Origin: a virus
Taxonomy: Duplodnaviria > Heunggongvirae > Uroviricota > Caudoviricetes
Virus record (IMG/VR): IMGVR_UViG_2874968258_000008
Length of the DNA stretch: 38,535 bases
Strand: one strand, 5' to 3'
Shown piece by piece: positions 836 through 33,721 of the stretch. Within the stretch, counting starts at the first letter, position 1, and each line of letters begins with the position of its first letter. Under the pieces are notes generated by a model. The model searched no databases. It saw nothing but the letters and a program-made list of their open reading frames with translations, and had not been told where the DNA came from. Position numbers and translations under genes: made by a program.

Positions 836-2338
836 TCATGTTTTGATTTGTGCGCTAATAGAACTTTTCTGTCTTTTCTTCTGCTCTTGAATGTATGTCT
901 GCACCATTTCTGTTATGGTTGAAAATGCACTATGTTCTTCTATAGTTATTTTTAATTTAAATGTTTTAATGACCGGATTGGTAAGGTTATTTGCATCAAC
1001 TCTCACCTCAATTGCACCATTCACTTTCTTTGGTTTGTTGGCTGTATATACGAACAACGGGAATATTTCTTCTTTGACTTGATGACGCCACTCTTCGCAT
1101 TCCAGCGATACAACTTGAACTGGCTCATTTCTCTTTTCTTTATAATAAAAATCGTTTTTATCCCTTTCTGTTGGAGTAAGAGATAACAAAGGACCAATTT
1201 CTTTTGAAATTATACTGGATAGCGGTGTTTCCAAAGCTCCCCCAGCGTAAGGCATTCTTTCTGTTACGCCACATACACTACGCCATTTTCCTTTGGGGGC
1301 GGTAGGGGCTGAAGGTAGGTCAATCCTTTTGCTTTCAGTCAGCTCTTCCATTATCTCCCAATTAAATCCACACAGACGAAAATCTCCTTTTGCTGTAAAT
1401 GTTACCACAGCACGTTCAGCGATAGTATAACCTGTGTTTTGTAATAAAAACGACAGCGGGTAATTTATTGCCTTCGGATTAATATGAGTATGACAGTTTT
1501 TCAGTATTTCTTCACACTGCTTTTTCCAAAGTGGATAATGTTTTTCTTTATAAAGAGAAATATCATCTGCTGATACAGGGAAATACTCCTGTTGACTAAA
1601 TGACTTGATGATTTTTTCTAGTGATTGTGGGGTAGTTTGTTCATTGTCAAAGTTTGTAACCAATGGGAATGCATCCGTTAGTTGACAAAGCAAATTATCA
1701 ACTTCATATTCAGATAAAGCTGTATAATAAGGAAGTACAATATTTAATTGCTCGTCATCGGCTACTTTAATGCTGAAATCGGGCATAGACTGAGTGAATT
1801 GCTTCAGCTTAGCTTCCAGCAATTTAATTTGTTTATCCTTTTCATCTGGCTCAGCAGGAAGCAACCATGAAGAAGGCACTTTATAGCAGATTATATTATG
1901 TTTTATTGCTGAAAAACGTGGACCGCTATCATTGGTAATGATTGCCACCTCCGAATCTGGATCGTCAGCGCAATACCCTGCCGCAATACCAACAAAACGA
2001 TCGTCGGCCTCCTGATAATCCAATTGTTCAGATAACTGTTCACATGGTTTCAGGCTTAGATCCATGGTAAGAAAAACTCGCGGCGAGCGTTCACGAATAA
2101 CAAGAGTCATGTCAGTTGAATCAACTACTTGATTAAATAGGCTAGCAGCCTTCCTTGCTTTTTTGGATAGGCGGGAATTACCTTGCCCTTTCTGGCGGTC
2201 AATCTCTTGCTGAATGGGCCTTGTAATAATGATACATACTTCATCACAAGCAGTAATCTCGGAAAAATTTACCTGCGTCAAGTCCTTGCATTGTAGAAAA
2301 ATGTTTGAGTCTGGGAATAAATACAGCTTTTTGTTCAT
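836..2338 (-). CDS. Cargo protein, 500 aa, N-terminal PIN-like nuclease domain plus about 350 aa of unknown C-terminal region
   Basis: Long ORF in a markedly AT-rich island between D and ogr; N-terminus LYLFPDSNIFL...VCIIITRPIQQEIDR...VAIITNDSGPRF has the spaced acidic residues on predicted strand ends typical of PIN domains; RBS-like GAGG before ATG; no P2 counterpart at this position. Confidence 0.7.
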   Translation of the reverse strand: MNKKLYLFPDSNIFLQCKDLTQVNFSEITACDEVCIIITRPIQQEIDRQKGQGNSRLSKKARKAASLFNQVVDSTDMTLVIRERSPRVFLTMDLSLKPCEQLSEQLDYQEADDRFVGIAAGYCADDPDSEVAIITNDSGPRFSAIKHNIICYKVPSSWLLPAEPDEKDKQIKLLEAKLKQFTQSMPDFSIKVADDEQLNIVLPYYTALSEYEVDNLLCQLTDAFPLVTNFDNEQTTPQSLEKIIKSFSQQEYFPVSADDISLYKEKHYPLWKKQCEEILKNCHTHINPKAINYPLSFLLQNTGYTIAERAVVTFTAKGDFRLCGFNWEIMEELTESKRIDLPSAPTAPKGKWRSVCGVTERMPYAGGALETPLSSIISKEIGPLLSLTPTERDKNDFYYKEKRNEPVQVVSLECEEWRHQVKEEIFPLFVYTANKPKKVNGAIEVRVDANNLTNPVIKTFKLKITIEEHSAFSTITEMVQTYIQEQKKRQKSSISAQIKT

Positions 2339-2563
2339 TCAAACCTCAACTATGTCAATGGTGTTAGATTAATATAATAATAGTTATCAATTGGTTATCA
2401 AAGCATGATTCTTACCACCCCTGATGTCAGGTAGGAAAACACCATATGTTTCTGCTCTGTTTTTCCTTAGAAATAGGCATCCTTGCTGGAACAAAGCGAG
2501 CAGCTATATTGACTCTATGTTGTGAGTGTGTTGATCCGTTCTGAGTTAATACATTTAAGTTGC

Positions 2564-3673
2564 TCACTCTGTTTCTGCTATCCATTCCGGGATTTTTGCC
2601 TCAAGCTCAAGCTGCGTGGTAAAGCCGCTGTTATCAATGGTGTGCTCGGCTTTTGCAATAATCCAGTCCTGATTATCAATCTCGCTTTTAAATCCTGTTA
2701 CCGTGCCATGCATTTCGGGGTAGAGTTCTGCACGTCCATGCGCCAGTGTGATGGAGAATGATGCGGCTCCGCGTTGTAGCTGCTGCCACTTTGCCGCCGC
2801 TGCACGTCTTGCTGCCTGCTCGTTCTGATAAGTTTTGCGTAACACAAACACGTTGCCTTCCGCACCTTCCATATAGTCGCCTTCCCGGCTGCTGCTTTTC
2901 TCCTTTTTTGGTTTTGACGGTTTGCGGCGTTTCACGCTGACTTTTTTCTTTTTCCCGTAATTAAGATCAAGCCAGTAAGCGCGTACCCCCGTATACGCTT
3001 CGCGGTCAGCAATGCGGAACTGATGGCGATCGCCGCTGCTGCGTGTGATGGCGAACGAGGGCAACGGCTGGCCCTGTGCGTTCACGCCACCACCGGGCAT
3101 GATGAATAACAGATTACCGCTTTTTACCGTGGTGATTGCGCCCAGCATTTCCGCCATGCGCGTAAGGAAGGACATGTCGCTTTCTTCGGTCTGGTCGGCG
3201 TGGTCGATTTCGATATCCATCAGCATTTCGCTGATTTGCGGTTTCAGACCATACCGATGAGCGATGGCGGATACCACACGCTCAACGGTCACATCATGCC
3301 AGGACACCTCACGTTTAACGTTAAATTCAGCCCGAAAATCTGCGCTTCTGGCTGAAACAGTCAGCCTGTCCGGCGGTCCTTCGTGAGCGATTTCATCAAC
3401 AATGTAAGTGCCTTTTTCTGTCAGCGGTTCTCCCTTCCAGCCAATGAGAACCGTCAGGCGCGCGCCCCGTGGCGGTAGCTGCAACTGACCATCCGCATCA
3501 TCCAGCGTGATGGTGAGCTGGTCCGCCTCAAATCCCCGGTTGTCGGTCAGTGACAGGCTCATCAGGCGCTCTGCCACGCCTGACAGCGTTTTACCCTCCG
3601 CGAGAATATCAAAATCCGGCATTTTCACGGGGTCTGTGCCCTGACTGAGCAATTGCATGGTGGTGTCGGTCAT
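2564..3673 (-). CDS. D: Tail protein gpD (late control D protein family)
   Basis: 369-aa reading frame from internal ATG at 3673 preceded by GGGAGGGAG RBS (ORF track extends to 3805); sequence typical of P2 gpD / Mu gpP family. Confidence 0.85.
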   Translation of the reverse strand: MTDTTMQLLSQGTDPVKMPDFDILAEGKTLSGVAERLMSLSLTDNRGFEADQLTITLDDADGQLQLPPRGARLTVLIGWKGEPLTEKGTYIVDEIAHEGPPDRLTVSARSADFRAEFNVKREVSWHDVTVERVVSAIAHRYGLKPQISEMLMDIEIDHADQTEESDMSFLTRMAEMLGAITTVKSGNLLFIMPGGGVNAQGQPLPSFAITRSSGDRHQFRIADREAYTGVRAYWLDLNYGKKKKVSVKRRKPSKPKKEKSSSREGDYMEGAEGNVFVLRKTYQNEQAARRAAAAKWQQLQRGAASFSITLAHGRAELYPEMHGTVTGFKSEIDNQDWIIAKAEHTIDNSGFTTQLELEAKIPEWIAETE

Positions 3674-3830
3674 CTGCTCCCTCCCTGTGTGGCATGGTCG
3701 CATGTGCGTGCGGAGGGGGTTACTGCTTTTTGTTGTCGCCGTGGCGGGAGAATGGCGCAGGGGTGAGATTACGCGCGTGGTGGGTGATGATTGTTGCCGA
3801 ATCATTTAACGGATACAAGGGGTTGAAGCT

Positions 3831-5015
3831 ATGAGTGAAACTCGTTTTCATGGTGCCCGTGTTACGGAAAATACCGACCTGGTAACAGCGATTAACGATG
3901 TTGATTCCAGCGTTATCGGTATCGTGGCAACGGCGGATGATGCGGACGCGGAGCTGTTCCCGCTGAACAAGCCCACACTGCTGCCCCGCGTCAATGACGT
4001 GCTGGGAAAATGCGGAACAACGGGGACGCTTTATCGTGCGCTTAAGGCCATCGCAGACCAGGTGAGCACAAAGGTGATCGTCGTTCGCGTGGCTGAACAC
4101 AAAGAAGAAGACGGAAAAACGCAGGATCAACTGGTTATCGGTGGTTCTGAATCTGACGGCAGCTATACGGGGATGTATGCGCTGCTTGTTGCAGAGCAGG
4201 ATGAAAGCATCGGATACCGTCCGCGTATTCTGGCCGCGCCGGAGCTGGACACGGAGGCGGTGACAAAATCCCTGTGCGTGATTGCGGGTAAACTGCGCGC
4301 GTTTGTGTATGCCTCATGTCATGACTGTAACACGATGGCTGAGGCAATTACCTACCGCCAGAAATTCAACGAACGTGAGGTGATGCTCTTATGGCCGGAC
4401 TTCATCGCCTACAACCCGAAAAGTGGCAAAAACGAAACGTTCCCCGCGCCTGCCTATGCGTGCGGCCTTCGTGCGTACATTGACCATGAGCAGGGCTGGC
4501 ACAAATCGCTGTCCAACGTTCCGGTTAAAAATGTGCTGGGGATGTCCAGGCATGTGTTCTGGTCGTTGCAGGCCGAAGACAGTGATGCCAACAGCCTCAA
4601 CAACAAAGAAATCACGACCATTATTCGTCGCAACGGGTTCCGCTTCTGGGGCAACCGCACACCGGAAACGAACGCCTACATCTTTGAGGTGTATACCCGA
4701 ACCGCACAGGTGCTGGCTGATTCAATTGCGGAAGCGCAGTTTGAAACCATCGACAGTCCACTGACGCCTGCGAACGTGAAGGATGTTATCGGTGCCATCA
4801 GGGCAAAACTGGATTCACTGGTTACTGCCGGGAAACTGATTGGGGCGTCGTGCTGGTATGACGTGGTGGATAACGGCACCACGAATTTACGTCAGGGGCG
4901 CGTGCGTATTCGCTACAAATATACGCCTGTTCCCCCGCTGGAAGACATGGAGCTTTACCAGTCGTTTACTGATGAATTCTTTGGTCCCGCATTTGCGGTG
5001 CTGGGAGGTGCCTGA
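3831..5015 (+). CDS. FI: Tail sheath protein gpFI
   Basis: 394-aa ORF; conserved DADAE.FPLNKP and GTLY.AL.AIADQ motifs of P2 FI. Confidence 0.9.
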   Translation: MSETRFHGARVTENTDLVTAINDVDSSVIGIVATADDADAELFPLNKPTLLPRVNDVLGKCGTTGTLYRALKAIADQVSTKVIVVRVAEHKEEDGKTQDQLVIGGSESDGSYTGMYALLVAEQDESIGYRPRILAAPELDTEAVTKSLCVIAGKLRAFVYASCHDCNTMAEAITYRQKFNEREVMLLWPDFIAYNPKSGKNETFPAPAYACGLRAYIDHEQGWHKSLSNVPVKNVLGMSRHVFWSLQAEDSDANSLNNKEITTIIRRNGFRFWGNRTPETNAYIFEVYTRTAQVLADSIAEAQFETIDSPLTPANVKDVIGAIRAKLDSLVTAGKLIGASCWYDVVDNGTTNLRQGRVRIRYKYTPVPPLEDMELYQSFTDEFFGPAFAVLGGA

Positions 5016-5527
5016 TGGCTGTACCAAAACATCTTCGCTTTTTTACGCTGTTTGTGGATGGTGAAAACGAAGTGGGTAAGGTGACGTCCGTCACTCTGCC
5101 TAAGCTGACGCGCAAAACCGACAGCTACCGGGGTGGTGGCATGATGGGAGCGGTAAGTATTGATCTCGGCCTGGATGACTCCGCGCTTGATGCGAGCTTT
5201 GTCATGGGGGGCGCAGTTCGTGAGCTGTTCCTTAAGTATGGCGGCACGATTGACGGTACGCTGCTGCGTTTTGCGGGTGAATACTACACCGACGCTGAAA
5301 GCGACCTGTATGAAGTCGAAATGCGCGGACGTGTGACGGAAATTGATATGGGGGAAGCCAAACAGGGCGAAGCCACATCACACACTTACGCCATTAAAAA
5401 CACCTACTACAAGCTGAGTGTTAACGATCGCCCGTTGTGGGAGATTGACCTGCTGAACTTCATTTACCGGAAGGACGGCAGGGACATTGTGCCCGATCGC
5501 ATCCGTTCCGCGCTCGGGCTTGGCTGA
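5015..5527 (+). CDS. FII: Tail tube protein gpFII
   Basis: 170-aa ORF immediately after FI with ATGA start/stop overlap; P2 FII-like sequence. Confidence 0.9.
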   Translation: MAVPKHLRFFTLFVDGENEVGKVTSVTLPKLTRKTDSYRGGGMMGAVSIDLGLDDSALDASFVMGGAVRELFLKYGGTIDGTLLRFAGEYYTDAESDLYEVEMRGRVTEIDMGEAKQGEATSHTYAIKNTYYKLSVNDRPLWEIDLLNFIYRKDGRDIVPDRIRSALGLG

Positions 5528-5581
5528 TAAGTAATATGCAGGCGGCGCAGTGCGTCGCCTCTGACTGAAAGGAGTTTCCTG

Positions 5582-5947
5582 ATGAAAGAGACGAAAAACA
5601 TCGATACCGAAAACACGGTCGTTGCTGACACTGTGAAAGAAACCAGTGAGCGTGGCGTAAAACTTACCCAACCAATTGAGCGAGGCGGCGAAAAAATCAC
5701 GTATGTGGAGATCACCGGGGCTATTGAGCAGGCTGGATCTCTGCGAGATTTGTCGCTGTCTGATGTGCTGAATTTGAAAGCGGAATCCATGTTTACGCTG
5801 CTGTCACGCGTGACATCACCGCGACTGGATGAAGTGACGATCAAAAAAATGGCATCCCGTGACTTTATTCAGTTATGTGTGGTTGCCGTAAATTTTTTGA
5901 GCGGTGCGGACTCTGGCGAGAAGAACGAACAGGCGACGGAAGCCTGA
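5582..5947 (+). CDS. E: Tail assembly chaperone gpE
   Basis: 121-aa ORF between FII and the tape measure gene, position and size as P2 E. Confidence 0.8.
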   Translation: MKETKNIDTENTVVADTVKETSERGVKLTQPIERGGEKITYVEITGAIEQAGSLRDLSLSDVLNLKAESMFTLLSRVTSPRLDEVTIKKMASRDFIQLCVVAVNFLSGADSGEKNEQATEA

Positions 5948-6111
5948 TCACGGTTGTGTGCTTTGAGCACATAGAAGACTTTGTGGCGGATATTGCCGCC
6001 ATTTTTAACTGGTCGCCCGCCGAAATCTTCATGATGACGCCCGGCGAAGTGGTTAGCTGGCGTGAGCGGGCGGCACTTCGCAGCGGGAATGCAGACAATG
6101 AAGACTCTTGA
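5582..6111 (+). CDS. gpE+E' frameshift fusion (programmed -1 ribosomal frameshift)
   Basis: Slippery heptamer T_TTT_TTG at 5893-5899 in E frame; -1 frame continues open to TGA at 6109-6111 (ORF 5875..6111) overlapping the start of T, as for P2 E/E' and lambda G/GT. Confidence 0.55.
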
Positions 6112-8905
6112 TATCCGGGTCGCTTTCAGCGCCGTTGACAGGCTGACCCGGCCTGCCGAAAACGCCCGCCGCCTGATGGGGCAGTTTGGTGACTCCATCC
6201 AGCGAACGCAGGGGGCGATCAAAAATCTCGAGCGTCAGGCGCGTTCATTTGAGCGCGCCCGTGACGCTGTCAGTAAAGCGGATGCGGGCATCGTGAAAGC
6301 ACGACGCCAGCTTAACGCCCTTAATCAGTTACAACGCACGGGTACAGTGCTCAGCGAAAAACAACAAAAGCTGATGCAGCAGTTAAGCACCCGGCTTGAA
6401 CGCCTGAATGAATCGCGCACACGGGAAATTCAGAAAATGCGGGAACTTGGCGGAGAGCTGAAACGCCACGGCATTTCCCTGACAGGCAGCGATAACACCA
6501 TCCAGCAGGCCATCAGACGCACCGGACAATACAACAACCAGCTTGAACGCGAACGGCGGGCGCTTGCGCGTGTAACGCAGGCGCGTGAGCGGTATTCACG
6601 CGCGCAGGAAACAGCGGGAAAACTGAAAACAGGTGGTGCGCTGGCAACAGGTGCGGCGGCAGCGGGCGGCTATGCTGCCGGGCGTTTTTTGCAGCCCGCT
6701 ATCGGGTTCGGGAAAGAGATGTCCCGTGTTCAGGCACTGACGCGAATCGATAAAAACAGCCCGCAGTTTAAGGCGCTGCGTGAGCAGGCGTTAAAACTTG
6801 GCTCTGAAACGCAGTTCACCGCAGGCGATGCCGCCAGTGGACAGGCATTTCTTGCAATGGCTGGTTTCACACCGCAGGCCATTCAGGCTGCGCTTCCCGG
6901 CGTGCTGAGCATGGCAACGGCTGGCGGTATGGACCTCGGCGAGACGGCGGATATTGGTTCCAATATCCTGACGCAGTTCGGCCTCTCTGCTGACCAGATG
7001 GACCGGGTCGGTGACACACTTACCGCAGCGTTTACCCGTACCAACACTGACCTTCGCGCACTGGGCGAAACCATGAAATATGCAGGTCCGGTGGCGGGTA
7101 AGCTGGGAATATCGCTGGAGCAGGCCGCAGCGATGGCGGGCGTGCTGGCGAAGATGGGTATCAGGGGGAGTGATGCAGGTACAGCGTTGCGTAAAAGCCT
7201 GGCCAATCTGTCATCACCGCCAAAGGCAGCGGCAGAAGCACTGAAAGAGCTGGGGGTGTCAGTTGCTGACGCCAAAGGCAAAATGCGCCCGATGGAGAAT
7301 GTGCTGGCCGATCTCTATAAAGCCACCCGCAAATACGGGGAGGTTGACCGGGTATCGTTCTTTAAGGACATTGCCGGAGAAGAGGCTTTCACATCATTTA
7401 TGGGCCTCGTTGATGCGGCAGGTGACGGCTTCTTAGCCAAACTGAGAAAAGAACTTGAAGGCGCGCGCGGTGAGGCAGAACGCACGGCAAAGGTTATGGC
7501 CAATAACCTTGATGGCAACCTGAAATCACTCGGCAGTGCATGGGAAGGTCTGCGTATTCGCATCAGTGATCTGGTTGACGGTCCGCTGCGTTCTGTCACG
7601 CAGTGGCTCACGCGGGTTGTCTCAAAGGTGACGGCGCTGGCGCAGGCCCACCCGGCACTGACGCGCCAGTTACTGATAGCGGGAGGCGCACTGCTGGCGA
7701 CAACAGCAACGGTTGGTTCGTTGTCTCTGGTTATTGGGGTGCTTCACGGGAAGCTGGCTACGTTGCGTCTCGGTTTTTCTCTCCTGACCGAATCAATGAA
7801 TGTTGTCAGGGTTCTGCCTGCATTATGGGGAATGGTGACGGGTTCCGTTTCTTTACTTGGTGGCGCTATCGGGGCGCTGTTCAGTCCGGTTAGTCTTATC
7901 GTGGCTGCGCTTGCCGGAGCTGCCGTTCTTATCTGGAAATACTGGGATCCCATCAGGGCATTTTTTGCCGGGGTGTTCAGCGGGATTATGGAAAGGCTGA
8001 CCCCGTTGCGCGAAACCTTTGAACGGTTTGGCCCTGTTTTTGATGTCGTGCGCGATGGGATTATTCAGGTCTTTAACTGGTTTAAATCGCTGCTGTCACC
8101 GATGGAGTCCAGCAAGGAAACGCTGGATAAATGTGCCAGTGCTGGCGAGATATTCGGTAACGTTCTTGGCGGTGCGTTACAACTTGTTCTGACACCTGCA
8201 AAAATGCTACTGGATACGCTGGCGTGGATACTTGAAAAACTTGGCGTCCTTCCGGATGAAGCGGAAAGGGCGCGCAAGAAAATCGAAGACGCACAGCGTG
8301 CGGCCATTCTTCAGGACAAGGTTGCCTTGCTTCAGGGGAACCTGGCGAAAATCAATCCGCCGAAGCCTGTGGAAAATGGCAATGGCACCGGAGGTGATAA
8401 ACCCAAAGACAACAAACCGCTCACAGACAGCAATACCGGGACGCTACGCAGACTCAGCAAAATTGCTGATAACACAGGTAAGCTGGTTGATGAGACGAAA
8501 AAACGCATTGGCCCCGGCGATATTGTCTTTAAGAACCTGCCCCGCGCACTTGCTGTTCGTGGGGAGTGGCAGGAGCGGAAGATTGCGCAGGTCAGTAAGC
8601 CTGCCCCCGCAATTAATATCACACCCGTGGTCCCGGCTCCGCTGCCTCCGGCGCTGGTCCCTGTTGTTGCGGCCAGCTCCCGCCCGGTGGCGGAGGCCAT
8701 ACGCTCTCCAGTGGCATCAGTTCCTGTAACTTCCCGTAACCGGGAGCCTGTTGCCTCCGGATTTGGTGGTGAAATTCATGTTCATCTGCATAACGTTGTT
8801 ACGCAGAATCCCCGCGAACTGGCGAAACTGGTCGGTGAAATGGTCAGGGCAGAAATGGAACGGCGCGCCCGTGCCGGGCGTGGCAGTTTTTACGATAAAG
8901 ATTGA
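6089..8905 (+). CDS. T: Tail tape measure protein gpT
   Basis: About 940-aa ORF, Ala/Gly-rich with central hydrophobic segments, follows E/E'; start could be ATG 6089 or 6098 (ORF track opens at 6062). Confidence 0.85.
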   Translation: MQTMKTLDIRVAFSAVDRLTRPAENARRLMGQFGDSIQRTQGAIKNLERQARSFERARDAVSKADAGIVKARRQLNALNQLQRTGTVLSEKQQKLMQQLSTRLERLNESRTREIQKMRELGGELKRHGISLTGSDNTIQQAIRRTGQYNNQLERERRALARVTQARERYSRAQETAGKLKTGGALATGAAAAGGYAAGRFLQPAIGFGKEMSRVQALTRIDKNSPQFKALREQALKLGSETQFTAGDAASGQAFLAMAGFTPQAIQAALPGVLSMATAGGMDLGETADIGSNILTQFGLSADQMDRVGDTLTAAFTRTNTDLRALGETMKYAGPVAGKLGISLEQAAAMAGVLAKMGIRGSDAGTALRKSLANLSSPPKAAAEALKELGVSVADAKGKMRPMENVLADLYKATRKYGEVDRVSFFKDIAGEEAFTSFMGLVDAAGDGFLAKLRKELEGARGEAERTAKVMANNLDGNLKSLGSAWEGLRIRISDLVDGPLRSVTQWLTRVVSKVTALAQAHPALTRQLLIAGGALLATTATVGSLSLVIGVLHGKLATLRLGFSLLTESMNVVRVLPALWGMVTGSVSLLGGAIGALFSPVSLIVAALAGAAVLIWKYWDPIRAFFAGVFSGIMERLTPLRETFERFGPVFDVVRDGIIQVFNWFKSLLSPMESSKETLDKCASAGEIFGNVLGGALQLVLTPAKMLLDTLAWILEKLGVLPDEAERARKKIEDAQRAAILQDKVALLQGNLAKINPPKPVENGNGTGGDKPKDNKPLTDSNTGTLRRLSKIADNTGKLVDETKKRIGPGDIVFKNLPRALAVRGEWQERKIAQVSKPAPAINITPVVPAPLPPALVPVVAASSRPVAEAIRSPVASVPVTSRNREPVASGFGGEIHVHLHNVVTQNPRELAKLVGEMVRAEMERRARAGRGSFYDKD

Positions 8906-25236: not shown

Positions 25237-26988
25237 ATGATTCAGGACGCTTTTGTGCGCCAGCGTGCGCGGCAACTTTACTGGCAGGGTTATCCGCCCG
25301 CAGAAATATCACGTCTGATGGGAATAAACCCGAACACGATTTATGCGTGGAAAAAACGCGACCAGTGGGATGAAACGCCACCCGTGCAGCGTGTCACGCA
25401 GTCCATCGATGCGCGCCTCATCCAGCTTACTGAAAAACAGAATAAAACAGGTGGTGACTTTAAGGAAATAGACCTGCTGACCCGGCAGCTTAAAAAACTG
25501 CATGATGGCCAGCCGGATGCGACGGCCACAGGAAAGAAAGGCCGGGCGAAAAAACTCAAAAATCATTTCACGCCGGAACAGATTGCCGCACTGCGGGAAA
25601 AAATCATCAGCAGGCTGGAGTGGCATCAGCGGGGCTGGTTTGACTCCCTGACGCTTTGCAGGGAAGCCGGGATACGTAACAGGATGATCCTGAAATCCCG
25701 ACAGATTGGGGCGACCTGGTATTTTGCACAGGAAGCACTGCTGATGGCGCTGCGTGACGATGTGGCACAACCTTACCAGCGTAACCAGATTTTTTTGTCT
25801 GCGTCGCGTCGTCAGGCGTTCCAGTTTAAAAGCATTATTCAGAAGGCCGCGGCTGAAGTCGATGTGGAGCTGAAAGGGGGCGATAAAATCATCCTCTCCA
25901 ACGGCGCAGAGATGCATTTTCTCGGCACTTCTGCTGCGACGGCGCAATCTTACACGGGCAATTTTTATTTTGATGAATTTTTCTGGGTCAGTCGCTTTGC
26001 TGAACTGCGCAAGGTGGCTGGCGCTATGGCAACCTTCAGCGGACTGCGGCGCACCTGCTTCTCCACGCCATCCACCGAAACGCACGAGGCATACGCCTAC
26101 TGGAACGGCGACCGCTGGAACGAGAAAAAGGCCGCGCATAAACGCCAGCGTTTTTCTGTGGACTGGAAAACGCTGCATAACGGGCTTATCTGCCCTGACC
26201 GGACGTGGCGGCAAATTGTCACGCTGGAAGATGTGGTTAATCACGGCTGGAAACACACCGATATTGATGAAATTCGTGATGAAAACACCGAAGACGAGTT
26301 CCGCAATCTCTATATGTGTGAGTTTGTCCGCGAAGGGGAATCGGCATTTAACCTGAATATCCTGATTGGCTGCGGTGTTGACGGATACGACGACTGGAAA
26401 GACTGGAAACCCTTTGCCCCCCGCCCGATGGGGAATCGTCCGGTATGGATTGGGTATGACGCAAACGGCAGCAGTGGTAACGGCGACAGCGGCGCTGTGT
26501 CCGTGGTGGTTCCTCCGGCTGTTCCTGGTGGTCGTTTCAGAACGGTGGAGACGCGACGCGTTCAGGGGCTGGAATTTGAAGAGCAGGCCAGAGTTATTGA
26601 AGAGTTCACGTATCGCTACAACGTGGAACACATCGGCATTGATGCGACGGGCGGGCATGGGGATGCCGTCTATCAGATAGTGAAACGGTTTTTTCCCGCC
26701 GCCATCCCTTACACCTTCACGCTGTCATCAAAACGGTCGCTGGTACTGAAAATGCTGCAAATAATGCGTGCCGGGCGGTGGGAATACGATCGCGCCGAAC
26801 GCGAGCTGGTTGCGGCCTTTAACGCCGTGCGTAAGGTGAAAACACCGGGCGGTTTTATCACTTACGAAACGGACCGCGCGAGGGGGATCAGCCACGGCGA
26901 CCTTGCGTGGGCAACCATGCTTGCTGTCATTAACGAACCGATTGGCGGCGAAGGAGAAAACGAGCGTTTCACGGTTATGGAGTTCTGA
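25237..26988 (+). CDS. P: Terminase large (ATPase) subunit gpP
   Basis: 583-aa ORF divergent from O, P2 arrangement. Confidence 0.85.
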   Translation: MIQDAFVRQRARQLYWQGYPPAEISRLMGINPNTIYAWKKRDQWDETPPVQRVTQSIDARLIQLTEKQNKTGGDFKEIDLLTRQLKKLHDGQPDATATGKKGRAKKLKNHFTPEQIAALREKIISRLEWHQRGWFDSLTLCREAGIRNRMILKSRQIGATWYFAQEALLMALRDDVAQPYQRNQIFLSASRRQAFQFKSIIQKAAAEVDVELKGGDKIILSNGAEMHFLGTSAATAQSYTGNFYFDEFFWVSRFAELRKVAGAMATFSGLRRTCFSTPSTETHEAYAYWNGDRWNEKKAAHKRQRFSVDWKTLHNGLICPDRTWRQIVTLEDVVNHGWKHTDIDEIRDENTEDEFRNLYMCEFVREGESAFNLNILIGCGVDGYDDWKDWKPFAPRPMGNRPVWIGYDANGSSGNGDSGAVSVVVPPAVPGGRFRTVETRRVQGLEFEEQARVIEEFTYRYNVEHIGIDATGGHGDAVYQIVKRFFPAAIPYTFTLSSKRSLVLKMLQIMRAGRWEYDRAERELVAAFNAVRKVKTPGGFITYETDRARGISHGDLAWATMLAVINEPIGGEGENERFTVMEF

Positions 26989-28034
26989 TGAGCAGAAAAA
27001 ATAAAAAAGTGCGCATGAGTTCACGCATTGATCTCGCTGATGCGCTCAGGAAAGAATCGTCGCTCAGTGCATTCACATTTGATGGTCCTTACCGCCTGAC
27101 CGGGCATGACCTGCTGGACAATATGTACTGTGCTGATAACGGGCGGTGGTATGAAACCCCGGTGGACTGGTACGGTCTGGCAAGAGCTGCCCGGCAAACG
27201 TCCTGGCATCAGTCTGCGCTTTACTTTAAGCGCAATGTATTGCTCGGCTGCTATATTCCGCACCCGCTGCTTTCCCGGCAGGATTTCTCGGCGCTGGCGC
27301 TGGACTGGTTTGTGTTCGGTAACGCATTCCTTGAGCTTCGGAGCAATATGCTCGGCGAACCGCTTAAATTACGGCACGCCCTGGCGAAATACATGCGACG
27401 CGGAAGCGATCTTGAATCATGGTGGTATGTGCAGGATGGCAAGGATGCGTTTCAGTTTCGTCCTGGCAAAGTGTGCCACCTGATGAATCCGGATATTAAC
27501 CAGGAAATCTACGGCATGCCGGAATATCTTGGCGCATTACTCTCGGCCAGCCTTTCTCATTCGGCGGACATGTTCAGAAAACTGTACTACGACAACGGAT
27601 CCCACGCCGGGTGCATCATCTACATCGGTGCAGCGCAGGTAAACCGCGAAAGCATGGACTCCCTGAAAGAAACGCTACAGGGGGCACGTGGTGGTGGTGC
27701 GTTTAAAAACGTGCTCATTCATGCGCCCAACGGGGGCAAAGAGGGGGTGCAAATTTTGCCGTTCCAGCAGATCACCGCAAAGGATGAGTTCATGAATGTT
27801 AAGGCGGCATCCCGTGATGATGTGCTGGCTGCGCACCGCGTTCCGCCGCAACTGATGGGGGCGATGCCGGGCGAAAAAAGTGCGTTTGGTGATGTGGAGA
27901 AGGCCGCGCGGGTTTACGCAATTAACGAGCTGATGCCCGTCATGGAGGCCATGAAGCACATCAATGACTGGCTTGGCGAAGAGGTGATCCGCTTTAACCC
28001 TTACGCACTGTTAGACACCCAGCCCACATCCTGA
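26988..28034 (+). CDS. Q: Portal protein gpQ
   Basis: 348-aa ORF coupled to P by ATGA overlap. Confidence 0.85.
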   Translation: MSRKNKKVRMSSRIDLADALRKESSLSAFTFDGPYRLTGHDLLDNMYCADNGRWYETPVDWYGLARAARQTSWHQSALYFKRNVLLGCYIPHPLLSRQDFSALALDWFVFGNAFLELRSNMLGEPLKLRHALAKYMRRGSDLESWWYVQDGKDAFQFRPGKVCHLMNPDINQEIYGMPEYLGALLSASLSHSADMFRKLYYDNGSHAGCIIYIGAAQVNRESMDSLKETLQGARGGGAFKNVLIHAPNGGKEGVQILPFQQITAKDEFMNVKAASRDDVLAAHRVPPQLMGAMPGEKSAFGDVEKAARVYAINELMPVMEAMKHINDWLGEEVIRFNPYALLDTQPTS

Positions 28035-28060
28035 CGCGCTTCGCTTGTCTGCTGCTTCGC

Positions 28061-28085
28061 CGGGGCATAAAAAATTTATGCCCCG
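28061..28085. terminator. Hairpin downstream of Q (possible terminator)
   Basis: CGGGGCATAAA-AAA-TTTATGCCCCG, 11-bp perfect stem; no clear U-tract. Confidence 0.4.
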
Positions 28086-28458
28086 ACTCTCCAGCTCCTG
28101 TATCAGTCAGATAATTTCACGACGCTTTCCTGCTGATTGCCATCATCGACAGTCAGACTCTTACGCAATCCCACCTCGTTGACTGCATATTCTCGCCGTC
28201 TCAGTGCGATTTTGACGGCCTTACCTTTCACCCCATCAAATCAAAAGCCCTCACGTCTTTTTCACGCTCAGCGTGAGAAATACAGCCATTCTGTTGTATC
28301 TCTGCGACATCGTTCAGGGAATGCTATTTACCCCCTGAAACGCGGGCTGTTCCCCCGTCACCTGCGCGCAGAAAAAACGCGTTTTTTTGTGCATGCACGG
28401 ATCCTTGACGGATCCAGCCGCCACGCGGGCCGGAAGGGCAAAAAGTCGTTCAAAAAAA

Positions 28459-28488
28459 TTGTGCAAATTTGTGCACTATTGTGCATTT
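28459..28488. repeat. Three phased direct repeats of TTGTGCA at 10-bp spacing
   Basis: ATTGTGCAAATTTGTGCACTATTGTGCATTT; repeat starts at 28459, 28469 and 28479. Confidence 0.4.
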
Positions 28489-28525
28489 ATAAAATCAACT
28501 AAAAAACACCTAGTGTGACTTACCT

Positions 28526-28711
28526 CTACCACTCGATCGGCACGTAGTCATTAAGTTCCGGAGACCAATTGCACTTTTCACATCTGTGTTTTCCATTCTG
28601 GCAGATACATAAACGATAACGGCCACAATGCGGGCACCCATTTTCACCATTATCATAATCACCGAGCGACCATTCCTGCATAAGCAGCTCTTCTTCATCA
28701 TCATTTAGCAT
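28526..28711 (-). CDS. Small Cys-rich protein (61 aa), putative zinc ribbon, unknown function
   Basis: CPHCGRYRLCICQNGKHRCEKC cysteine pattern; last of three co-directional ORFs. Confidence 0.5.
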   Translation of the reverse strand: MLNDDEEELLMQEWSLGDYDNGENGCPHCGRYRLCICQNGKHRCEKCNWSPELNDYVPIEW

Positions 28712-28725
28712 TAATCCCCCTTGAG

Positions 28726-28965
28726 CTATTTACTCTTCTCGGCCCTCAAAATCATACGAGAACCATCATCCAGCTCCCAATTAATTTCACCGCCTTCTGC
28801 CATGACTAGATGCCAAACGAGTTGAGCGGCCTCGTTGGTTACATCGCGACCGCGATCATTTCCTACGCGGCGTTTTGTTCCGTCTCCTAAGTCACGCATT
28901 TTTGCCAATACGATGGTTTTTGATAGCGGTGAAAAACCAAGCTGTAGTCGTGCTGAATTACTCAC
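28726..28965 (-). CDS. Hypothetical protein (79 aa)
   Basis: ORF whose start overlaps the stop of the upstream 174-aa ORF (ATGA). Confidence 0.5.
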   Translation of the reverse strand: MSNSARLQLGFSPLSKTIVLAKMRDLGDGTKRRVGNDRGRDVTNEAAQLVWHLVMAEGGEINWELDDGSRMILRAEKSK

Positions 28966-29486
28966 TGGCTGCCCCCTTTGTACTGTGTTAACTCTTCCTG
29001 CTCCTGCATCATGCGATTGACCTGAACGCGTGTGCGTCGAACGGCAAAATTAAATTGAAACATGAGCCGGAACATTTCTGATGCTTCCGTGTGAGCATCA
29101 CGGATAGGTGACAGGCGGTACAGTTCTGCCTCCGTAGCTTGTTGAATCAATGACAGATCAAATTGAAGTGCGGGTCTGGTACATTTTGCACATCTGGCAG
29201 CAAGCTCCGGTATTAGTCTCTTAACGAAGGTGTTTTGCACCGCTTTGTTGATTTGTGTCTGCATCCAAATCGCAAATTTCAGCGAACGCATAAGTTTGAT
29301 AGCCTCGGGCAGCGGCAGATAGATCATGCTGGTAGATTTGGGTGGTTGGTGAACCATCTTCACGGATACGCGATTTCGCAGCGTTCGGAAAATCGTGTTC
29401 CCAACAACAGCTTCTACGGATACAGGACAGGGAGCCAGACCAGCCCGCAGTGCTTCTTTCATTAGCATGTATTCGTATTTTTTCAT
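28962..29486 (-). CDS. Hypothetical protein (174 aa)
   Basis: First ORF of a three-gene cluster downstream of parR; lower GC than the phage core. Confidence 0.55.
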   Translation of the reverse strand: MKKYEYMLMKEALRAGLAPCPVSVEAVVGNTIFRTLRNRVSVKMVHQPPKSTSMIYLPLPEAIKLMRSLKFAIWMQTQINKAVQNTFVKRLIPELAARCAKCTRPALQFDLSLIQQATEAELYRLSPIRDAHTEASEMFRLMFQFNFAVRRTRVQVNRMMQEQEELTQYKGGSQ

Positions 29487-29546
29487 CGTGTTTTCCTCGT
29501 GCGGGGCGACAGTGCACCCCGATAAAATTAAAAGCCGTCAAATTCG

Positions 29547-29858
29547 TCATTCAGGAAATAATGCCCGGATATTCCCTGCTATCTGACTGGTTATCTGTGC
29601 GGTTGGTACTGGCTGTGGCACGGGGCGTTCTGTCCTGGTTTGTGTCACCGATAACGCCTCATCGTCAGCCCATGCAGCCAGTCGGTAAGCCTCTGCTGGA
29701 TTCATTTTCAGAAGTGCCAGCCCGGCCAGAAAAGCCACGCGTTGGCCGCTTTTGCGGGCTTCTGGTGTAAGGCTGCCCAGCCAGGCGCATGCTTCGCTTT
29801 CGTTCTTGACGGCCGCAGGCTTCAGATAGAAACTTATCCGTCTGGTTGGTGTCGTCAT
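29547..29858 (-). CDS. parR: ParR-like centromere-binding adaptor protein
   Basis: 103-aa frame from MTTPTRRISFYLKP (ORF track extends to 29993); alignable from memory to plasmid R1 ParR (IAFKLNPD.., ..AALTAGLALYRQDP.., ..NILRSLFP); starts 4 nt after the parM stop. Confidence 0.65.
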   Translation of the reverse strand: MTTPTRRISFYLKPAAVKNESEACAWLGSLTPEARKSGQRVAFLAGLALLKMNPAEAYRLAAWADDEALSVTQTRTERPVPQPVPTAQITSQIAGNIRALFPE

Positions 29859-29862
29859 TGGT

Positions 29863-30822
29863 TTACTCCTTGTCCATTGCGTACAGCCCATTAACCAGAG
29901 CAAACTGTGGCACCCCGTCCGCGATGAAAGTCGCATTAACTCCGCAGGCTTCGCGGATAGCGGGTGCCACAATCTCCGCCCCTCCACCGACAACCATCAC
30001 CCGCCCGTAACCCGAAAAACCCGCCAGCGCGCGGATCACGCGTTGTTTCAGTGTTTCTTCCTTTTCACGAATAACCGCCATCAGGCTGGCGTAATGCGCG
30101 TCATTGTGGATGTGCTGGCGCAGCCAGGCTTCATCATGGCGATGTTCGATAATGGTATTGGCGATGTGGTGACTGGTGCGCATACCGTTAGTGGCCATCA
30201 CCGACAGTACGGCATCGGCCATCAGAGAAACGCCTACGTGTGGATCGCAAAACACCTGGCTGATACCTGCCAGTTGCCCCTGAACCTTTGCCACATCCAG
30301 CGTGGTTCCGCCCAAATCCACAATCAGCAGGGATTCAAACGGACTCATGTCAGCCAGTGCCTTAAAGCCAGCCGGAATGGATTCAGGCATAACCCGCACG
30401 TTACGGATAGTGAATGCTTCGCCGTTCTGGTACTCCACCGGGCGCATAACGTTCGCTTTTTTGCGGTTGATGTTGGCCATGTCCGGCTGTGCGTTTGTGT
30501 CGAAATACTCGCTCAGTGGCAGGGTGACAACCACATCCACCTCCTGTGGCGTGATGCCTGATTTGACCAGCGCGTGATGAATGGCAATGACATTTACATC
30601 GCTGTACTGGTATTGCGTGTCGGTTGTCTGGACAAAGCGATCGCTGACCGGATCAAAACCATAGCGCACGCCATCAAGCATGTAGTTCGCGGGCTGCATG
30701 CCACCGAACGGCGCAGACCATTCCGACTTGAAGCTGTTCGGGCTGATGGCGTTGCGGCGTTCGCCGTTCTCAGTCCATGCCAGCTTGATGTTGGTGGAGC
30801 CGTCGTCGATACAAATTTTCAT
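29863..30822 (-). CDS. parM: ParM/StbA-family actin-like segregation ATPase
   Basis: 319 aa; actin-fold motifs DDGSTNIK (phosphate 1), IVDLGGTTLDVA (phosphate 2), VVGGGAE (adenosine); extended similarity to R1 ParM along the whole length. Confidence 0.8.
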   Translation of the reverse strand: MKICIDDGSTNIKLAWTENGERRNAISPNSFKSEWSAPFGGMQPANYMLDGVRYGFDPVSDRFVQTTDTQYQYSDVNVIAIHHALVKSGITPQEVDVVVTLPLSEYFDTNAQPDMANINRKKANVMRPVEYQNGEAFTIRNVRVMPESIPAGFKALADMSPFESLLIVDLGGTTLDVAKVQGQLAGISQVFCDPHVGVSLMADAVLSVMATNGMRTSHHIANTIIEHRHDEAWLRQHIHNDAHYASLMAVIREKEETLKQRVIRALAGFSGYGRVMVVGGGAEIVAPAIREACGVNATFIADGVPQFALVNGLYAMDKE

Positions 30823-30853: not shown

Positions 30854-30892
30854 TTTACGGGATTCTGAAATCCCGTTTTTGCCTGTTTTGTG
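30854..30892. repeat. Hairpin-containing direct repeat, copy 1, upstream of parM
   Basis: TTTACGGGATTCTGAAATCCCGTTTTTGCCTGTTTTGTG; near-duplicate of 30927..30965, which encodes the C-terminus of A. Confidence 0.5.
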
Positions 30893-30898
30893 CGCGCT

Positions 30899-33721
30899 TC
30901 ATATATCGCTGCGCGTTTTTTGCTCATTTACGGGATTCGTGAGTCCCGTTTCTGTCTGTTTTTTGTTTCCACTGGTCAGGCCACCCCGCAGCAGGTCTGC
31001 TTTGCGGCGGGCGCGTTCAGTGGTTTCACTGATTCTCTGTGCGTGCTCTGCGTCGCGGATGGCGCGCAGCATGTCAGAAAGCACGGTAACGGGTGTTTTC
31101 ATGGTGTTCTGGTCCTGCTGAAGTGTGGATGCCAGGCGTGCGGCGGCTTCAGGGTCTGATGCCCCCAGCTGTGTCAGATAGCTGGCGACCGGGTTATGGC
31201 GGATCTCCGTGCTGCTTACGCCATGATTACGGCTCAGGCGCTGCCAGAGCTGCGTGATTCGGCTGTCCGGGCGGGTATCCGGTTTGCGTACAATTTCAAA
31301 TCCCTGCGGTGCAATGATGCTGCCGTCAACGTACAGACTGCCGCCCCGTAACAGGTGCTGCATCTGTTGTTCACCGATATGCAGGCCGAGAGATTCAGCA
31401 GACTCCCGCCATTCTTTAGCGAGTAATTCGTGGTTATCAGGCAAAGGCCGCTGCTGTTTGCGGCTCTGTGTCCAGCTCTGCATTTCATCACTGCTGTTTT
31501 TTGCCTGTTTGTCACGAAGCGAACGCATCAGCGCCCGGCGTTCGTGCCGTTTCAGTGAGCGCATCCATTCATCCACATCAACGCCGTCAGGGAGCTGCGG
31601 CCACGGTGCTGGCCGTTCTTCCGGCTGTTCTGTCCCGTTGTTGTCCGTTTCCTGTACACGGGGACAGTTATTGCCACGAGTCCAAGGGGCGGCAGGGCCG
31701 CCCTGAAGGTCAAAACCATTTTCGCGGGCGCTGTCTTCCGCTTCCGGTTTGCGTCTTACCAGCTTCCAGTTATCCGGATGCGTGCACACACGGGAGGATT
31801 CCCCGATGAGTGGTGACCAGATCCCGTAAATCTGTACGCTCTGTTCGCCGTAATCGTTCAGCTCATCGGCGAGGTCGTAGGCGGTGCGAATCAGGTAGTC
31901 TTTGCGTGGAACAAGTACGCCGCCCTGTTTCTCTATGTAGGTGGCAAAACATCCGGCATCAGCGGCGGCAAGAACCGCATCCATTGCGTCATCCTTCAGC
32001 CGTTGCGGGCCTTCCGGGTTGCGTGCCATCTGGCTGGCAAGGCGGCGCAGTTCACGCCATACCTGGCAGGAGGGGATGCCAAAGAACTGGAACTGGCGGA
32101 CCCGGTGAAGGCGCGCCCAGCCGATGGCGCGTTCCACGCTCTCGGCCATTGATTTTCCGGTTTCGTGGTCAACGCGTGGCTTGCCCGTTTTCGGGTCGAT
32201 GCCATCCACGGCGCGGCTGTCCAGGTTTTTCCCGATGTAGGTGGCGATGTAGCTGGTTGGCGTGCCTTTTGAGCCGTCTACATACTCCGCCTTAAAGCGC
32301 GGAGTTATGTCATCGCCCAGCTCGTGACGATCTTCCTGAATGGCAATATCGCGGGTGTGGGACACAATGGTGTCGATTTCTTCCGGATGAGCAAAGACCA
32401 TCATATGCCAGTGCACGGTGCCGTCATGGTGAGGCTCCGCCGTGCGGATGCCATACCAGCGCAGGCCGTCGCGGTTCAGTTTTTTGCGGACCGTCGCAAA
32501 AAACGTGTTAACCAGGTAATCGCTGGAGTCGCGCATTGTGGCCCCGTTCCATTTGGGATTCGGATGACCGTTCTCCGTTGTGGCGTGGTATTTTGACGGG
32601 CAGGTGACAGTCAGAAACACCGCTTTGTCGCCACGGGCTTCGGCCAGAAGTTCCAGCCCCTTCATGGTGGCCATCATTTCTGCCTTACGGTGAACCGGGT
32701 TACTTACTCCCGCGTAATACACCGTCTCGAGATCAATCGTGAACCCGTCTTCATTTTCCAGCATGAAACTTTTCAGGAAATCGCGTGTTTTCTCGCGCTG
32801 TGCGCGAAACTCGCTTAACGCGTCCTGGCTCAGATAGGGCGATGTTTTTCTGGAAACCAGACAGGCGGCGCGAAGTTGTTCTTCTCTCCACTCGCAACGT
32901 AACAGCCACAGTTTGCGTTTCCACCATTCCGCACAGGTCAGGCGAAGGATTGCGCCCGGCAGCAGTTCTGTGTCCGGTTCGTGCCTCCGGTCTTTGTCTG
33001 TTGTCAGTGCGTCATAATGCGGAGGCATGGCGTGTAAGTGTAACGCCATGCGGGCCAGCATCTGATACGCCTTCAGCGTTACATCCATGGTCAGCTCGCC
33101 ATCAGTCGCGCCAAAACCATCGCAGAGTTTTTCGAAGGTGCTGCTGAACATCGCCGCCGTCATGGTGGCCAGCGTCTGTATCTGGTGTTTGTTGAGTTGC
33201 GGCAGGTAAAGCAAATCGTCCAGGCGTTCACGTCCGGCAAGGGAGCGATAACCCGGTGTCAGCCAGTGTCCGTCAGTGCGATCCAGACGTTCGAATATTT
33301 TGCGCAGGGTTCCGCGTGCATAGCGTTCCGCCTGCCAGCTCTTTTTGCCTTTCCGGCGATCGGCTTCCTGTTTTTTGCGCAGGAAGGAGAGGTGGCGAAT
33401 AAGCGGATCGCGCAGATAGGACGGCAGCAGGCGCAGCGAGGCCATGGCTTCATCCACCGCGCCGTGTGCCTGTTTTCTGGCGTCTCCTGCCAGTGTGATG
33501 GTTTTGTCCTGTTTTTCCTGTGCGTCCAGGCTTTTATTAATCAGGTTGCCCAGTGGCGTGGCGGAGAACGCCGCATCAGCCATTTCCTGGCGGCGCTCGT
33601 TCTCTGCCCGGTGGGCATCCAGCCAGGAGGAAAGCGCGGATTCAGGAGCGGGGATCCCCGTTCCTTCACGCCCCACTGCGTGGCGCGGTTGTTGCCAGTC
33701 CCTGATGTACTCTGCCGTCAT
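30899..33721 (-). CDS. A: Replication initiation endonuclease gpA (rolling-circle HUH family)
   Basis: 940-aa ORF with HUH metal-binding motif GTVHWHMMVFAHP and downstream Tyr-containing region, as in P2 A. Confidence 0.85.
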   Translation of the reverse strand: MTAEYIRDWQQPRHAVGREGTGIPAPESALSSWLDAHRAENERRQEMADAAFSATPLGNLINKSLDAQEKQDKTITLAGDARKQAHGAVDEAMASLRLLPSYLRDPLIRHLSFLRKKQEADRRKGKKSWQAERYARGTLRKIFERLDRTDGHWLTPGYRSLAGRERLDDLLYLPQLNKHQIQTLATMTAAMFSSTFEKLCDGFGATDGELTMDVTLKAYQMLARMALHLHAMPPHYDALTTDKDRRHEPDTELLPGAILRLTCAEWWKRKLWLLRCEWREEQLRAACLVSRKTSPYLSQDALSEFRAQREKTRDFLKSFMLENEDGFTIDLETVYYAGVSNPVHRKAEMMATMKGLELLAEARGDKAVFLTVTCPSKYHATTENGHPNPKWNGATMRDSSDYLVNTFFATVRKKLNRDGLRWYGIRTAEPHHDGTVHWHMMVFAHPEEIDTIVSHTRDIAIQEDRHELGDDITPRFKAEYVDGSKGTPTSYIATYIGKNLDSRAVDGIDPKTGKPRVDHETGKSMAESVERAIGWARLHRVRQFQFFGIPSCQVWRELRRLASQMARNPEGPQRLKDDAMDAVLAAADAGCFATYIEKQGGVLVPRKDYLIRTAYDLADELNDYGEQSVQIYGIWSPLIGESSRVCTHPDNWKLVRRKPEAEDSARENGFDLQGGPAAPWTRGNNCPRVQETDNNGTEQPEERPAPWPQLPDGVDVDEWMRSLKRHERRALMRSLRDKQAKNSSDEMQSWTQSRKQQRPLPDNHELLAKEWRESAESLGLHIGEQQMQHLLRGGSLYVDGSIIAPQGFEIVRKPDTRPDSRITQLWQRLSRNHGVSSTEIRHNPVASYLTQLGASDPEAAARLASTLQQDQNTMKTPVTVLSDMLRAIRDAEHAQRISETTERARRKADLLRGGLTSGNKKQTETGLTNPVNEQKTRSDI
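30927..30965. repeat. Hairpin-containing direct repeat, copy 2, inside the 3' end of gene A
   Basis: TTTACGGGATTCGTGAGTCCCGTTTCTGTCTGTTTTTTG; encodes ...KKQTETGLTNPVNEQ at the A C-terminus. Confidence 0.5.

Follow-up and report, generated by a model that had tools for sequence, protein, structure and literature searches.

Three small genes, here designated A, B and C, are located on the minus strand of the window, by which we mean the whole stretch of 38,535 nucleotides that was analysed. Gene A (174 aa, ATG start) extends from position 29486 to 28962, gene B (79 aa, GTG start) from 28965 to 28726 and gene C (61 aa, ATG start) from 28711 to 28526, in agreement with a preliminary description of this DNA, which had listed three co-directional ORFs of these sizes. 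The same description took all three ORFs to be overlapping and translationally coupled. An overlap exists between A and B, where the stop codon of A and the start codon of B share 4 nt (GTGA), but not between B and C, which are separated by a 14-nt spacer that contains the Shine-Dalgarno sequence AAGGGGGA. Gene A is preceded by the Shine-Dalgarno sequence GAGGA, while that of B (AGGGGG) is positioned inside the 3′ end of A. The GC contents of A (48.0%), B (47.5%) and C (44.6%) were indeed lower than those of the phage core, as had been pointed out, with values of 54–58% for the terminase, portal, parR, parM and repA genes. Comparison of A with homologues 70% and 52% identical at the protein level gave dN/dS values of 0.27 and 0.23, respectively. 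Judged by these values, and by the family membership and conservation of B and C, we consider A, B and C to be genuine coding genes. Conceivably, the ORFs could be spurious and the region could represent a non-coding spacer or harbour genes on the opposite strand, as several plus-strand ORFs of 60–140 aa overlap it and C was left unannotated by RefSeq in Escherichia coli FDAARGOS_943. This is scarcely credible, however, in view of the dN/dS of 0.23–0.27 in the frame of A, the fact that B and C are conserved over their entire length in different genera, including invariant Cys, Trp and Gly residues, the presence of B and C in curated Pfam/PHROG families, and the Shine-Dalgarno sequences that precede all three genes.

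One flank of the slot that is occupied by A-B-C consists of the genes for a P2-type large terminase (25237–26988) and portal (26988–28034), which are both encoded on the plus strand. The other, conserved upstream flank is formed by parR and parM on the minus strand, directly upstream of A. The parR gene (about 29547–29861) encodes a 103–104 aa form of the protein that matches Pfam Plasmid_stab_B (5e-23), and parM (29863–30822) matches Pfam StbA_N (2.7e-82) and ParM_N; in both cases the assignment agrees with the RefSeq labels of homologues. Located on the same side is the minus-strand repA gene for a 940-aa Phage_GPA replication protein. The gene order, repA-parM-parR-A-B-C followed by an intergenic region and the portal gene, matches the gpA-gpQ (old/tin) slot of P2 by position. 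By megablast, the flanks are 92–97% identical in phage P88, Chuche, Citrobacter phage Shae_phiSM and other Xuanwuvirus-type phages and prophages, while the ∼1-kb middle of the slot is exchanged in P88, Chuche, Shae_phiSM and other relatives despite the kept flanks. Since these flanks are common to P88/Xuanwuvirus-type phages, the window can be classified by homology as a P88-like (Xuanwuvirus, Peduoviridae) prophage of the P2 family. It has an Ogr_Delta gene of its own at 332–592.

The gpA-gpQ slot of P2-like phages is a described hotspot in which many defence systems are housed, and a partition system is present in about a quarter of these phages (Rousset et al., PMC9122126). According to a further study, 20.8% of the hotspot cargo groups match DefenseFinder (bioRxiv 10.1101/2024.10.15.618418). 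The conserved flanks and exchanged middle support the earlier assignment of the three genes to the old/tin position and to a variable hotspot for accessory genes. The genes had, in addition, been placed between the cos region and parR. While parR and parM do lie directly upstream of A, cos itself could not be located: the P2 cos 19-mer was absent from the window even when 3 mismatches were allowed, and no part of the window showed similarity to the right end of P2, so that the term ‘cos region’ denotes synteny only. An Rfam search of positions 27900–29700 gave a sub-threshold gyrA-RNA over the portal terminator hairpin as the sole match.

The minus strand encodes every gene from about position 36060 down to 28526, namely, in this order, a 92-aa gene, DUF4761, DUF4754, MarR/HTH_24, a 121-aa gene, repA, parM, parR, A, B and C, and the genes for an HTH_3 repressor and an integrase are divergent from this operon. 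A crude consensus scan of the 60 nt that separate parR and A detected no sigma-70-like promoter. The leader that extends from the stop codon of parR to the start codon of A (29487–29553, minus strand) moves with the A module, its upstream boundary being located at about 29546–29553 according to blastn breakpoints, and the hairpin in this leader is unexceptional (z = 0.24). A consensus scan did detect a terminator-like hairpin with a T-run on the minus strand 50 nt downstream of C (28476–28461), which is likely to mark the end of the transcription unit. The spacing, the strand and these scans suggest that A, B and C probably share a transcript with repA-parMR and that their translation is coupled.

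This architecture can be compared with that of the P2 genes known from the same slot. Like old and tin of P2, A-B-C lie between the replication gene (gene A in P2) and the cos/portal end at gene Q, in a slot that is variable and non-essential. However, old and tin are encoded on the strand opposite to P2 gene A and have their own promoter, with mapped transcript starts next to cos, whereas A-B-C are co-directional with repA/parMR and no promoter was found for them in the consensus scan. Furthermore, P2 Old is a 586-aa AAA/Toprim nuclease, while A, B and C show no homology to Old or Tin. It is the position and orientation of orf91, the only gene that continues the P2 A operon, that are matched by A-B-C. 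In their architecture, A-B-C are the counterpart of orf91-type distal early genes and not of the old/tin cassette.

The product of gene A is a basic protein (pI 10.0) without a match in Pfam, PHROG, PADLOC, NCBIfam or, by sequence, the PDB. An exhaustive profile search among 1.84 billion representative proteins recovered just 3 representatives, all from its own narrow family, and this family comprises 8 clusters at 90% identity. The AF2 model of A, based on a 6-sequence alignment, was poor (pLDDT 49.5) and displayed a mostly helical protein after a small N-terminal sheet; a Foldseek search of the PDB with this model gave nothing at E ≤ 0.001. We also considered A as a lipoprotein, but its LAPC is not a lipobox, a hydrophobic h-region is absent and the maximum KD19 was 1.23. 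Gene A usually follows the gene for ParR or, alternatively, a ClpX-type zinc-finger gene, and is itself followed by an Ead/Ea22-like gene, and this association with Ead/Ea22 (18 of 24 loci) was seen only within P2-like phages. By its homologues, A represents a near-orphan family that is confined to enterobacterial P2-like prophages.

According to the preliminary description, the three proteins resemble nothing that can be assigned, which proved to be wrong for both B and C. B belongs to Pfam DUF7446 (PF24233), with 61.0 bits against a cut-off of 24.1 (E 9.7e-17; profile positions 2–67 of 70), and to phrog_1578 (2.1e-32). Its homologues form at least 372 clusters at 90% identity from many enterobacterial genera with a mean column identity of 81%, and all 120 homologues of B among the matches listed carried PF24233. 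By tblastn, B was found in 21 phage records; lambda itself was absent among the matches. At the DNA level, the B module is 70–91% identical to sequences of Lederbergvirus (P22-like), a Lastavirus, Escherichia phage Bas82 and other phages. Within the PL early-left region of Salmonella phage 29485 and the Lederbergvirus (P22-like) vB_EcoP-683R2, B resides between erf/bet and ead/ea22. B is a member of the early-left ‘ea’ gene pool (PL region) of P22-like phages. The Lastavirus SopranoGao, which carries B, has an integrase gene and does not place B in a strictly virulent phage. The B protein is basic (pI 9.4). Its AF2 model, built from 36 sequences, had a pLDDT of 59.1, and Foldseek searches of the PDB and BFVD with this model (E ≤ 0.001) recovered only a sequence homologue in Enterobacter phage EcP1. 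A PDB sequence search with B returned nothing, and the same was true of literature searches for DUF7446.

C matches phrog_24897 over residues 1–60 against profile positions 1–60 of 60 (E 2.6e-46), and its family consists of 36 clusters that reach down to about 60% identity. The CxxC...CxC...CxxC pattern noticed earlier in the 61-aa protein is present as C26xxC29, C35xC37 and C44xxC47, and these Cys residues are invariant or nearly so in 28 homologues. Conserved as well in these homologues are W14, G17, Y19, N39, G40, H42 and W49. The protein is strongly acidic (pI 4.4, net charge about −8) with an acidic N-terminal tail. Zinc-ribbon families in Pfam gave sub-threshold matches only (Zn_ribbon_IS1595, Zn_Ribbon_TF, RpoM and L37Ae). 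C shares two CxxC knuckles, 14 residues apart, with generic rubredoxin-like zinc ribbons, such as TFIIB, the N-terminus of the IS1595 transposase, ribosomal L37Ae/eL43 and RpoM, but it differs from these by the additional conserved CxC, by His42, by the acidic N-terminal tail and by being a stand-alone protein of 61 aa. We rejected the reading of C as an HNH endonuclease or an Ogr/Delta-type activator, which has no Pfam support and in which the spacing of only 14 residues between the CxxC pairs does not fit. C can be described as a putative six-Cys zinc-ribbon mini-protein that is widely distributed in proteobacterial phages. The hosts include Erwinia, Rhodanobacter, Lysobacteraceae, Pseudomonas, Methylophaga, Dyella and one betaproteobacterium. 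A tblastn search with C found no enterobacterial phage record.

The surroundings of C recur in other genomes. In Salmonella, Erwinia, Pseudomonas and Craterilacuibacter, no other gene separates C from a convergent P2-type portal gene, and at these loci the identity of C (66–95%) can be set against that of the portal (48–74%). Other C loci are found near an integrase gene or a tRNA, or upstream of the packaging genes in a phage with a P22-type portal. C is adjoined by a conserved non-coding block (28332–28525, no strand; detected by blastn), which is located where P2-like phages have cos and contains TTGTGCA repeats and palindromes. This block is inherited together with C in Salmonella P2-like prophages, with 85–89% identity versus 78% for the portal gene. 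One could imagine that C is not cargo but a semi-conserved P2-like gene that is tied to the genome end, with a role in cos recognition or packaging, in the control of the convergent portal-terminase operon, or as the early protein that is expressed last. Supporting this idea, 18 of 50 IMG/VR loci with C are convergent with a P2-type portal, C is better conserved than the portal (66–87% versus 48–74% identity) at the portal-adjacent loci of Salmonella, Erwinia, Pseudomonas and a betaproteobacterium, and C has stayed beside the portal in Salmonella where a 532-aa cargo gene was inserted upstream of it. We nevertheless regard such a role as improbable. P2 lacks C and so do most P88-like prophages (L001, L003, L004 and L007 among them), a P2-type portal is missing within 2.5 kb of 32 of the 50 C loci, some of which are beside an integrase gene or a tRNA, and C does not resemble the terminase, HNH or Ogr families. 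Moreover, the conserved non-coding block of Erwinia psidii is located upstream of C, which means that C is found on the other side of the block. The breadth, the conservation and the recurrent portal adjacency of C make it a mildly intriguing element of the locus.

Comparison with related loci by blastn revealed sharp breakpoints that separate the three genes from each other. The A module, with the leader included, spans 29553–28958, the B module extends from 28986/28980 to 28735, and the C module (28741–28332) consists of C and the downstream non-coding block. The A module meets the B-C module at a recombination junction (28958–28986, minus strand), where the homology to two related loci (L001 and L004) stops at 28958 and that to another (L002) begins at 28986. 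This junction encodes the tail QYKGGSQ* and includes the Shine-Dalgarno sequence of B. In E. coli FDAARGOS_943, the gene ahead of B encodes an unrelated 75-aa protein with a similar tail (…QHKGGNQ*), and the A/B junction is a typical boundary-sequence crossover. Other occupants of the slot were also observed. The variant in E. coli FDAARGOS_943 consists of a ClpX-type zinc-finger gene, the gene for the 75-aa protein, B and C, the latter being intact though unannotated. In sister prophages, ParR is followed by A and Ead/Ea22; a further variant encodes a 66-aa protein, SSB, a ClpX zinc finger, A, Ead/Ea22 and proteins of 75 and 167 aa, and one sister prophage has a YafO-family toxin in the slot. 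Together these breakpoints and variants show A, B and C to be three unrelated recombination modules, each with its own boundaries and distribution.

The distribution of the three genes was assessed in IMG/VR loci anchored on each of them; a co-occurrence analysis, across P2-like prophages, had been recommended in the preliminary description. Among 24 loci anchored on A, the arrangement was A-Ead/Ea22 in 18, A-B-C in 4 and A alone in 2. For B, 80 loci included 4 with A and C, most of the others continuing with Ead/Ea22-type genes. Among the 50 loci anchored on C, B was present in 4, a convergent P2-type portal in 18 and neither in 32. The complete trio was found only in 4 near-identical IMG/VR contigs and in one Shigella sonnei contig (FUDY01000038), which is 99.95% identical to the window over 27900–30000 and has kept the A-B-C order. 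None of 5,426 complete E. coli genomes covered ≥80% of the A-B-C cluster at one place. From these counts and the tblastn distributions of B and C it follows that the trio is confined to one near-clonal lineage. The same phage lineage and slot were represented in a 2022 survey, which lists the A-family protein WP_000759755; the window differs in that it has the B-C block in place of Ead_Ea22, as a rare recombinant that accounts for 4 of the 24 A loci in IMG/VR.

The joint transfer of B and C raises the question of whether these two genes could form a functional pair to which A is unrelated. B and C are part of a contiguous DNA block (28986–28485) that is 99% identical between the arrangement of the window and the S. 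sonnei lineage and that of E. coli FDAARGOS_943, their spacer of 14 nt carries a Shine-Dalgarno sequence, and the charges of the two proteins are opposite, with pI values of 9.4 for B and 4.4 for C. We judge a pair to be quite unlikely all the same, as C is missing from 76 of 80 B loci and B from 46 of 50 C loci. The tblastn results also differ, B being found in 21 phage records and C in no enterobacterial one, and the homology of the C module in Salmonella P2-like prophages begins 30 nt upstream of C, leaving B out.

The preliminary description had suggested that a compact operon such as this one could be a toxin-antitoxin or another small accessory system. More generally, A-B-C, or two of these genes, might constitute a toxin-antitoxin, abortive-infection or superinfection-exclusion system that is functionally equivalent to P2 old/tin. 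The location in the gpA-gpQ hotspot with its many defence systems (PMC9122126), the YafO-family toxin in the same slot of a sister prophage and the tight spacing of A, B and C all speak for this idea. Remote homology searches, which had likewise been proposed as a check, gave it no support: A matched only its own family, and B and C matched catalogued families that are not toxin, antitoxin or defence families. The models of A and B from the structure prediction that had also been proposed were too poor to use. PADLOC-DB v2 contained 0 families for A, B and C at E ≤ 1, and neither a toxin-family nor an antitoxin match, as expected of a type II system, was found for any of them in Pfam, NCBIfam or PADLOC. 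Transmembrane segments and nuclease, kinase or ATPase motifs were absent from A, B and C. A conserved pairing of partners was not observed either, as A, B and C occurred together in 4/24, 4/80 and 4/50 of the anchored loci, and co-occurrence was absent outside the one near-clonal lineage. In addition, the three genes are separate modules that run in the direction of the lytic early operon, and the crude consensus scan revealed no dedicated promoter upstream of them. Because of this domain content, co-occurrence and architecture, the toxin-antitoxin and defence readings fail, and we consider them very improbable.

We think it fairly probable that A, B and C are functionally independent early accessory genes that were recombined into the distal part of the early operon, and that they constitute neither a toxin-antitoxin pair nor a defence system. 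Illegitimate or short-homology recombination would have strung the three genes together at the distal end of an early operon that runs from a cox-like gene through repA, parM and parR, in the gpA-gpQ hotspot. Their transcription would occur by read-through from the early promoter or the parMR promoter and would stop at the hairpin past C, while translation would be coupled through the 4-nt overlap and then the 14-nt spacer with its strong Shine-Dalgarno sequence. Each of the three proteins would most likely act singly, as a small and dispensable protein that is expressed early and binds a macromolecule of the host or the phage. Proteins of this type tune host takeover, the lysis-lysogeny decision or counter-defence, much as those of the lambda exo-xis region do.

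Within this proposal, the nearest functional analogue would be the lambda exo-xis region (orf60a, orf61, orf63, orf73, ea22 and ea8.5) together with the P22 ‘ea’ region. These regions also contain small, non-essential mosaic genes that are tightly spaced or overlapping and occupy the distal portion of an early operon. B is physically present in that region in P22-like phages, and A is flanked by Ead/Ea22-like and ClpX-type zinc-finger genes from the same gene pool. Lambda Ea8.5 is a small zinc-binding protein, as C with its putative zinc ribbon may be. By position, however, only B was found in the ‘ea’/exo-xis pool itself, since A lies beside Ead_Ea22 in 18 of 24 loci but exclusively in P2-like phages, and C was not encountered there. 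The window also differs from the lambda/P22 early-left region in that it represents a P2-family phage with a replication/partition operon, not PL. A PDB sequence search revealed no homology of A, B and C to the structurally solved exo-xis proteins, with no matches for A and B and generic zinc ribbons only for C. As there is no homology to characterised exo-xis proteins, our proposal is that A-B-C ‘work like’ these families and not that they are members of them. The small genes of the exo-xis region are reported to be transcribed very early and to modulate the lysis-lysogeny decision (PMC8614690, PMC3824215, PMC7093339).

Several observations run counter to the proposal of independent early accessory genes. 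A parC-type promoter upstream of parM could express A-B-C in the lysogen, which would fit lysogenic conversion. B and C occur together in two different slot arrangements. The models of A and B are of low confidence, the fold searches with them gave no match other than the sequence homologue of B, and no function is predicted for A, B or C. We also considered that C could be a dedicated, conserved mini-protein with a specific target, acting as a counter-defence inhibitor, a DNA mimic or a genome-end factor, and that A and B could be early anti-defence or host-takeover proteins. To this possibility we attach a small but real chance. Literature searches that combined anti-defence, early operon and zinc ribbon returned nothing.

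As an assembly of accessory early genes, the locus would be an instance of ordinary phage mosaicism, with B and C belonging by homology to catalogued families. It serves as a negative control for guilt by location, in that a slot famous for defence genes also gathers ordinary accessory genes of the early operon. Orientation, promoter architecture and co-occurrence are the features that tell defence cargo from such early-operon accessory genes. If it were true that A, B or C, and C above all, is a counter-defence or host-takeover factor, a small, widespread family would be added to the catalogue.

The DNA that encodes the end of A, the basic 174-aa near-orphan, proved to have a counterpart in the related locus of E. 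coli FDAARGOS_943. There, an unrelated 75-aa protein (6483-6710 of that locus) has only its C-terminal residues in common with A, reading QHKGGNQ-stop as compared with QYKGGSQ-stop in A (28958-28986 in the window), and the DNA specifying this shared end overlaps the Shine-Dalgarno sequence and the start of the next gene. The segment at 28958-28986 is a short conserved boundary sequence, which marks the crossover point between the separately recombining modules A and B-C. The same E. coli locus carries, at 6050-6232, an intact copy of the gene for C, the six-cysteine zinc-ribbon protein, with 100% identity to that of the window; this copy is not annotated in the RefSeq record (NZ_CP065615.1).

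C was also encountered in a betaproteobacterial P2-like prophage of Craterilacuibacter sinensis (1988-3168), where a ParA-type ATPase gene is followed by a 113-aa gene, C and then the portal gene. This order of partition system, C and portal parallels that of the window, although the partition type differs, being ParMR in the window. Beside C, the window has a conserved non-coding block in common with Salmonella and Erwinia P2-like prophages (28341-28492 in the window; 2690-2834 in locus L026). It contains three TTGTGCA repeats at 10-11-nt spacing as well as overlapping palindromes (28455-28492), and whereas it lies downstream of C in the window, in Erwinia psidii it is found on the upstream side of the gene. 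The block may function as a site for packaging or for regulation. Upstream of parM, two 20-nt palindromes of the form ACGGGAYT-N4-RATCCCGT (30857-30876 and 30930-30949) lie around the repA stop with a spacing of 73 nt. No further copies are present in the window, and at least four hits were obtained in none of 100 shuffles. The palindromes may be elements that bind ParR or that act as a parC-like centromere/promoter.

As for cargo, a sister prophage in E. coli CDE6306 has, in the matching slot, genes for a YafO-family type II toxin and a 197-aa hypothetical protein (4846-5829); upstream of them are the remnant of an Ead/Ea22 gene and A in intact form. The A-B-C slot does, at times, receive genuine toxin-antitoxin cargo. 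Another recognised variable position in P2-like phages has the tail gene gpD (2564-3805) on one side and an Ogr_Delta gene (332-592) on the other. In the window it holds a minus-strand gene (836-2338), which lies in an island of 37-40% GC (about 500-2500) and whose 500-aa product carries a PIN_4 domain at its N-terminus. This protein had no match in PADLOC; as a candidate for defence or abortive infection, it is more plausible than A, B or C.
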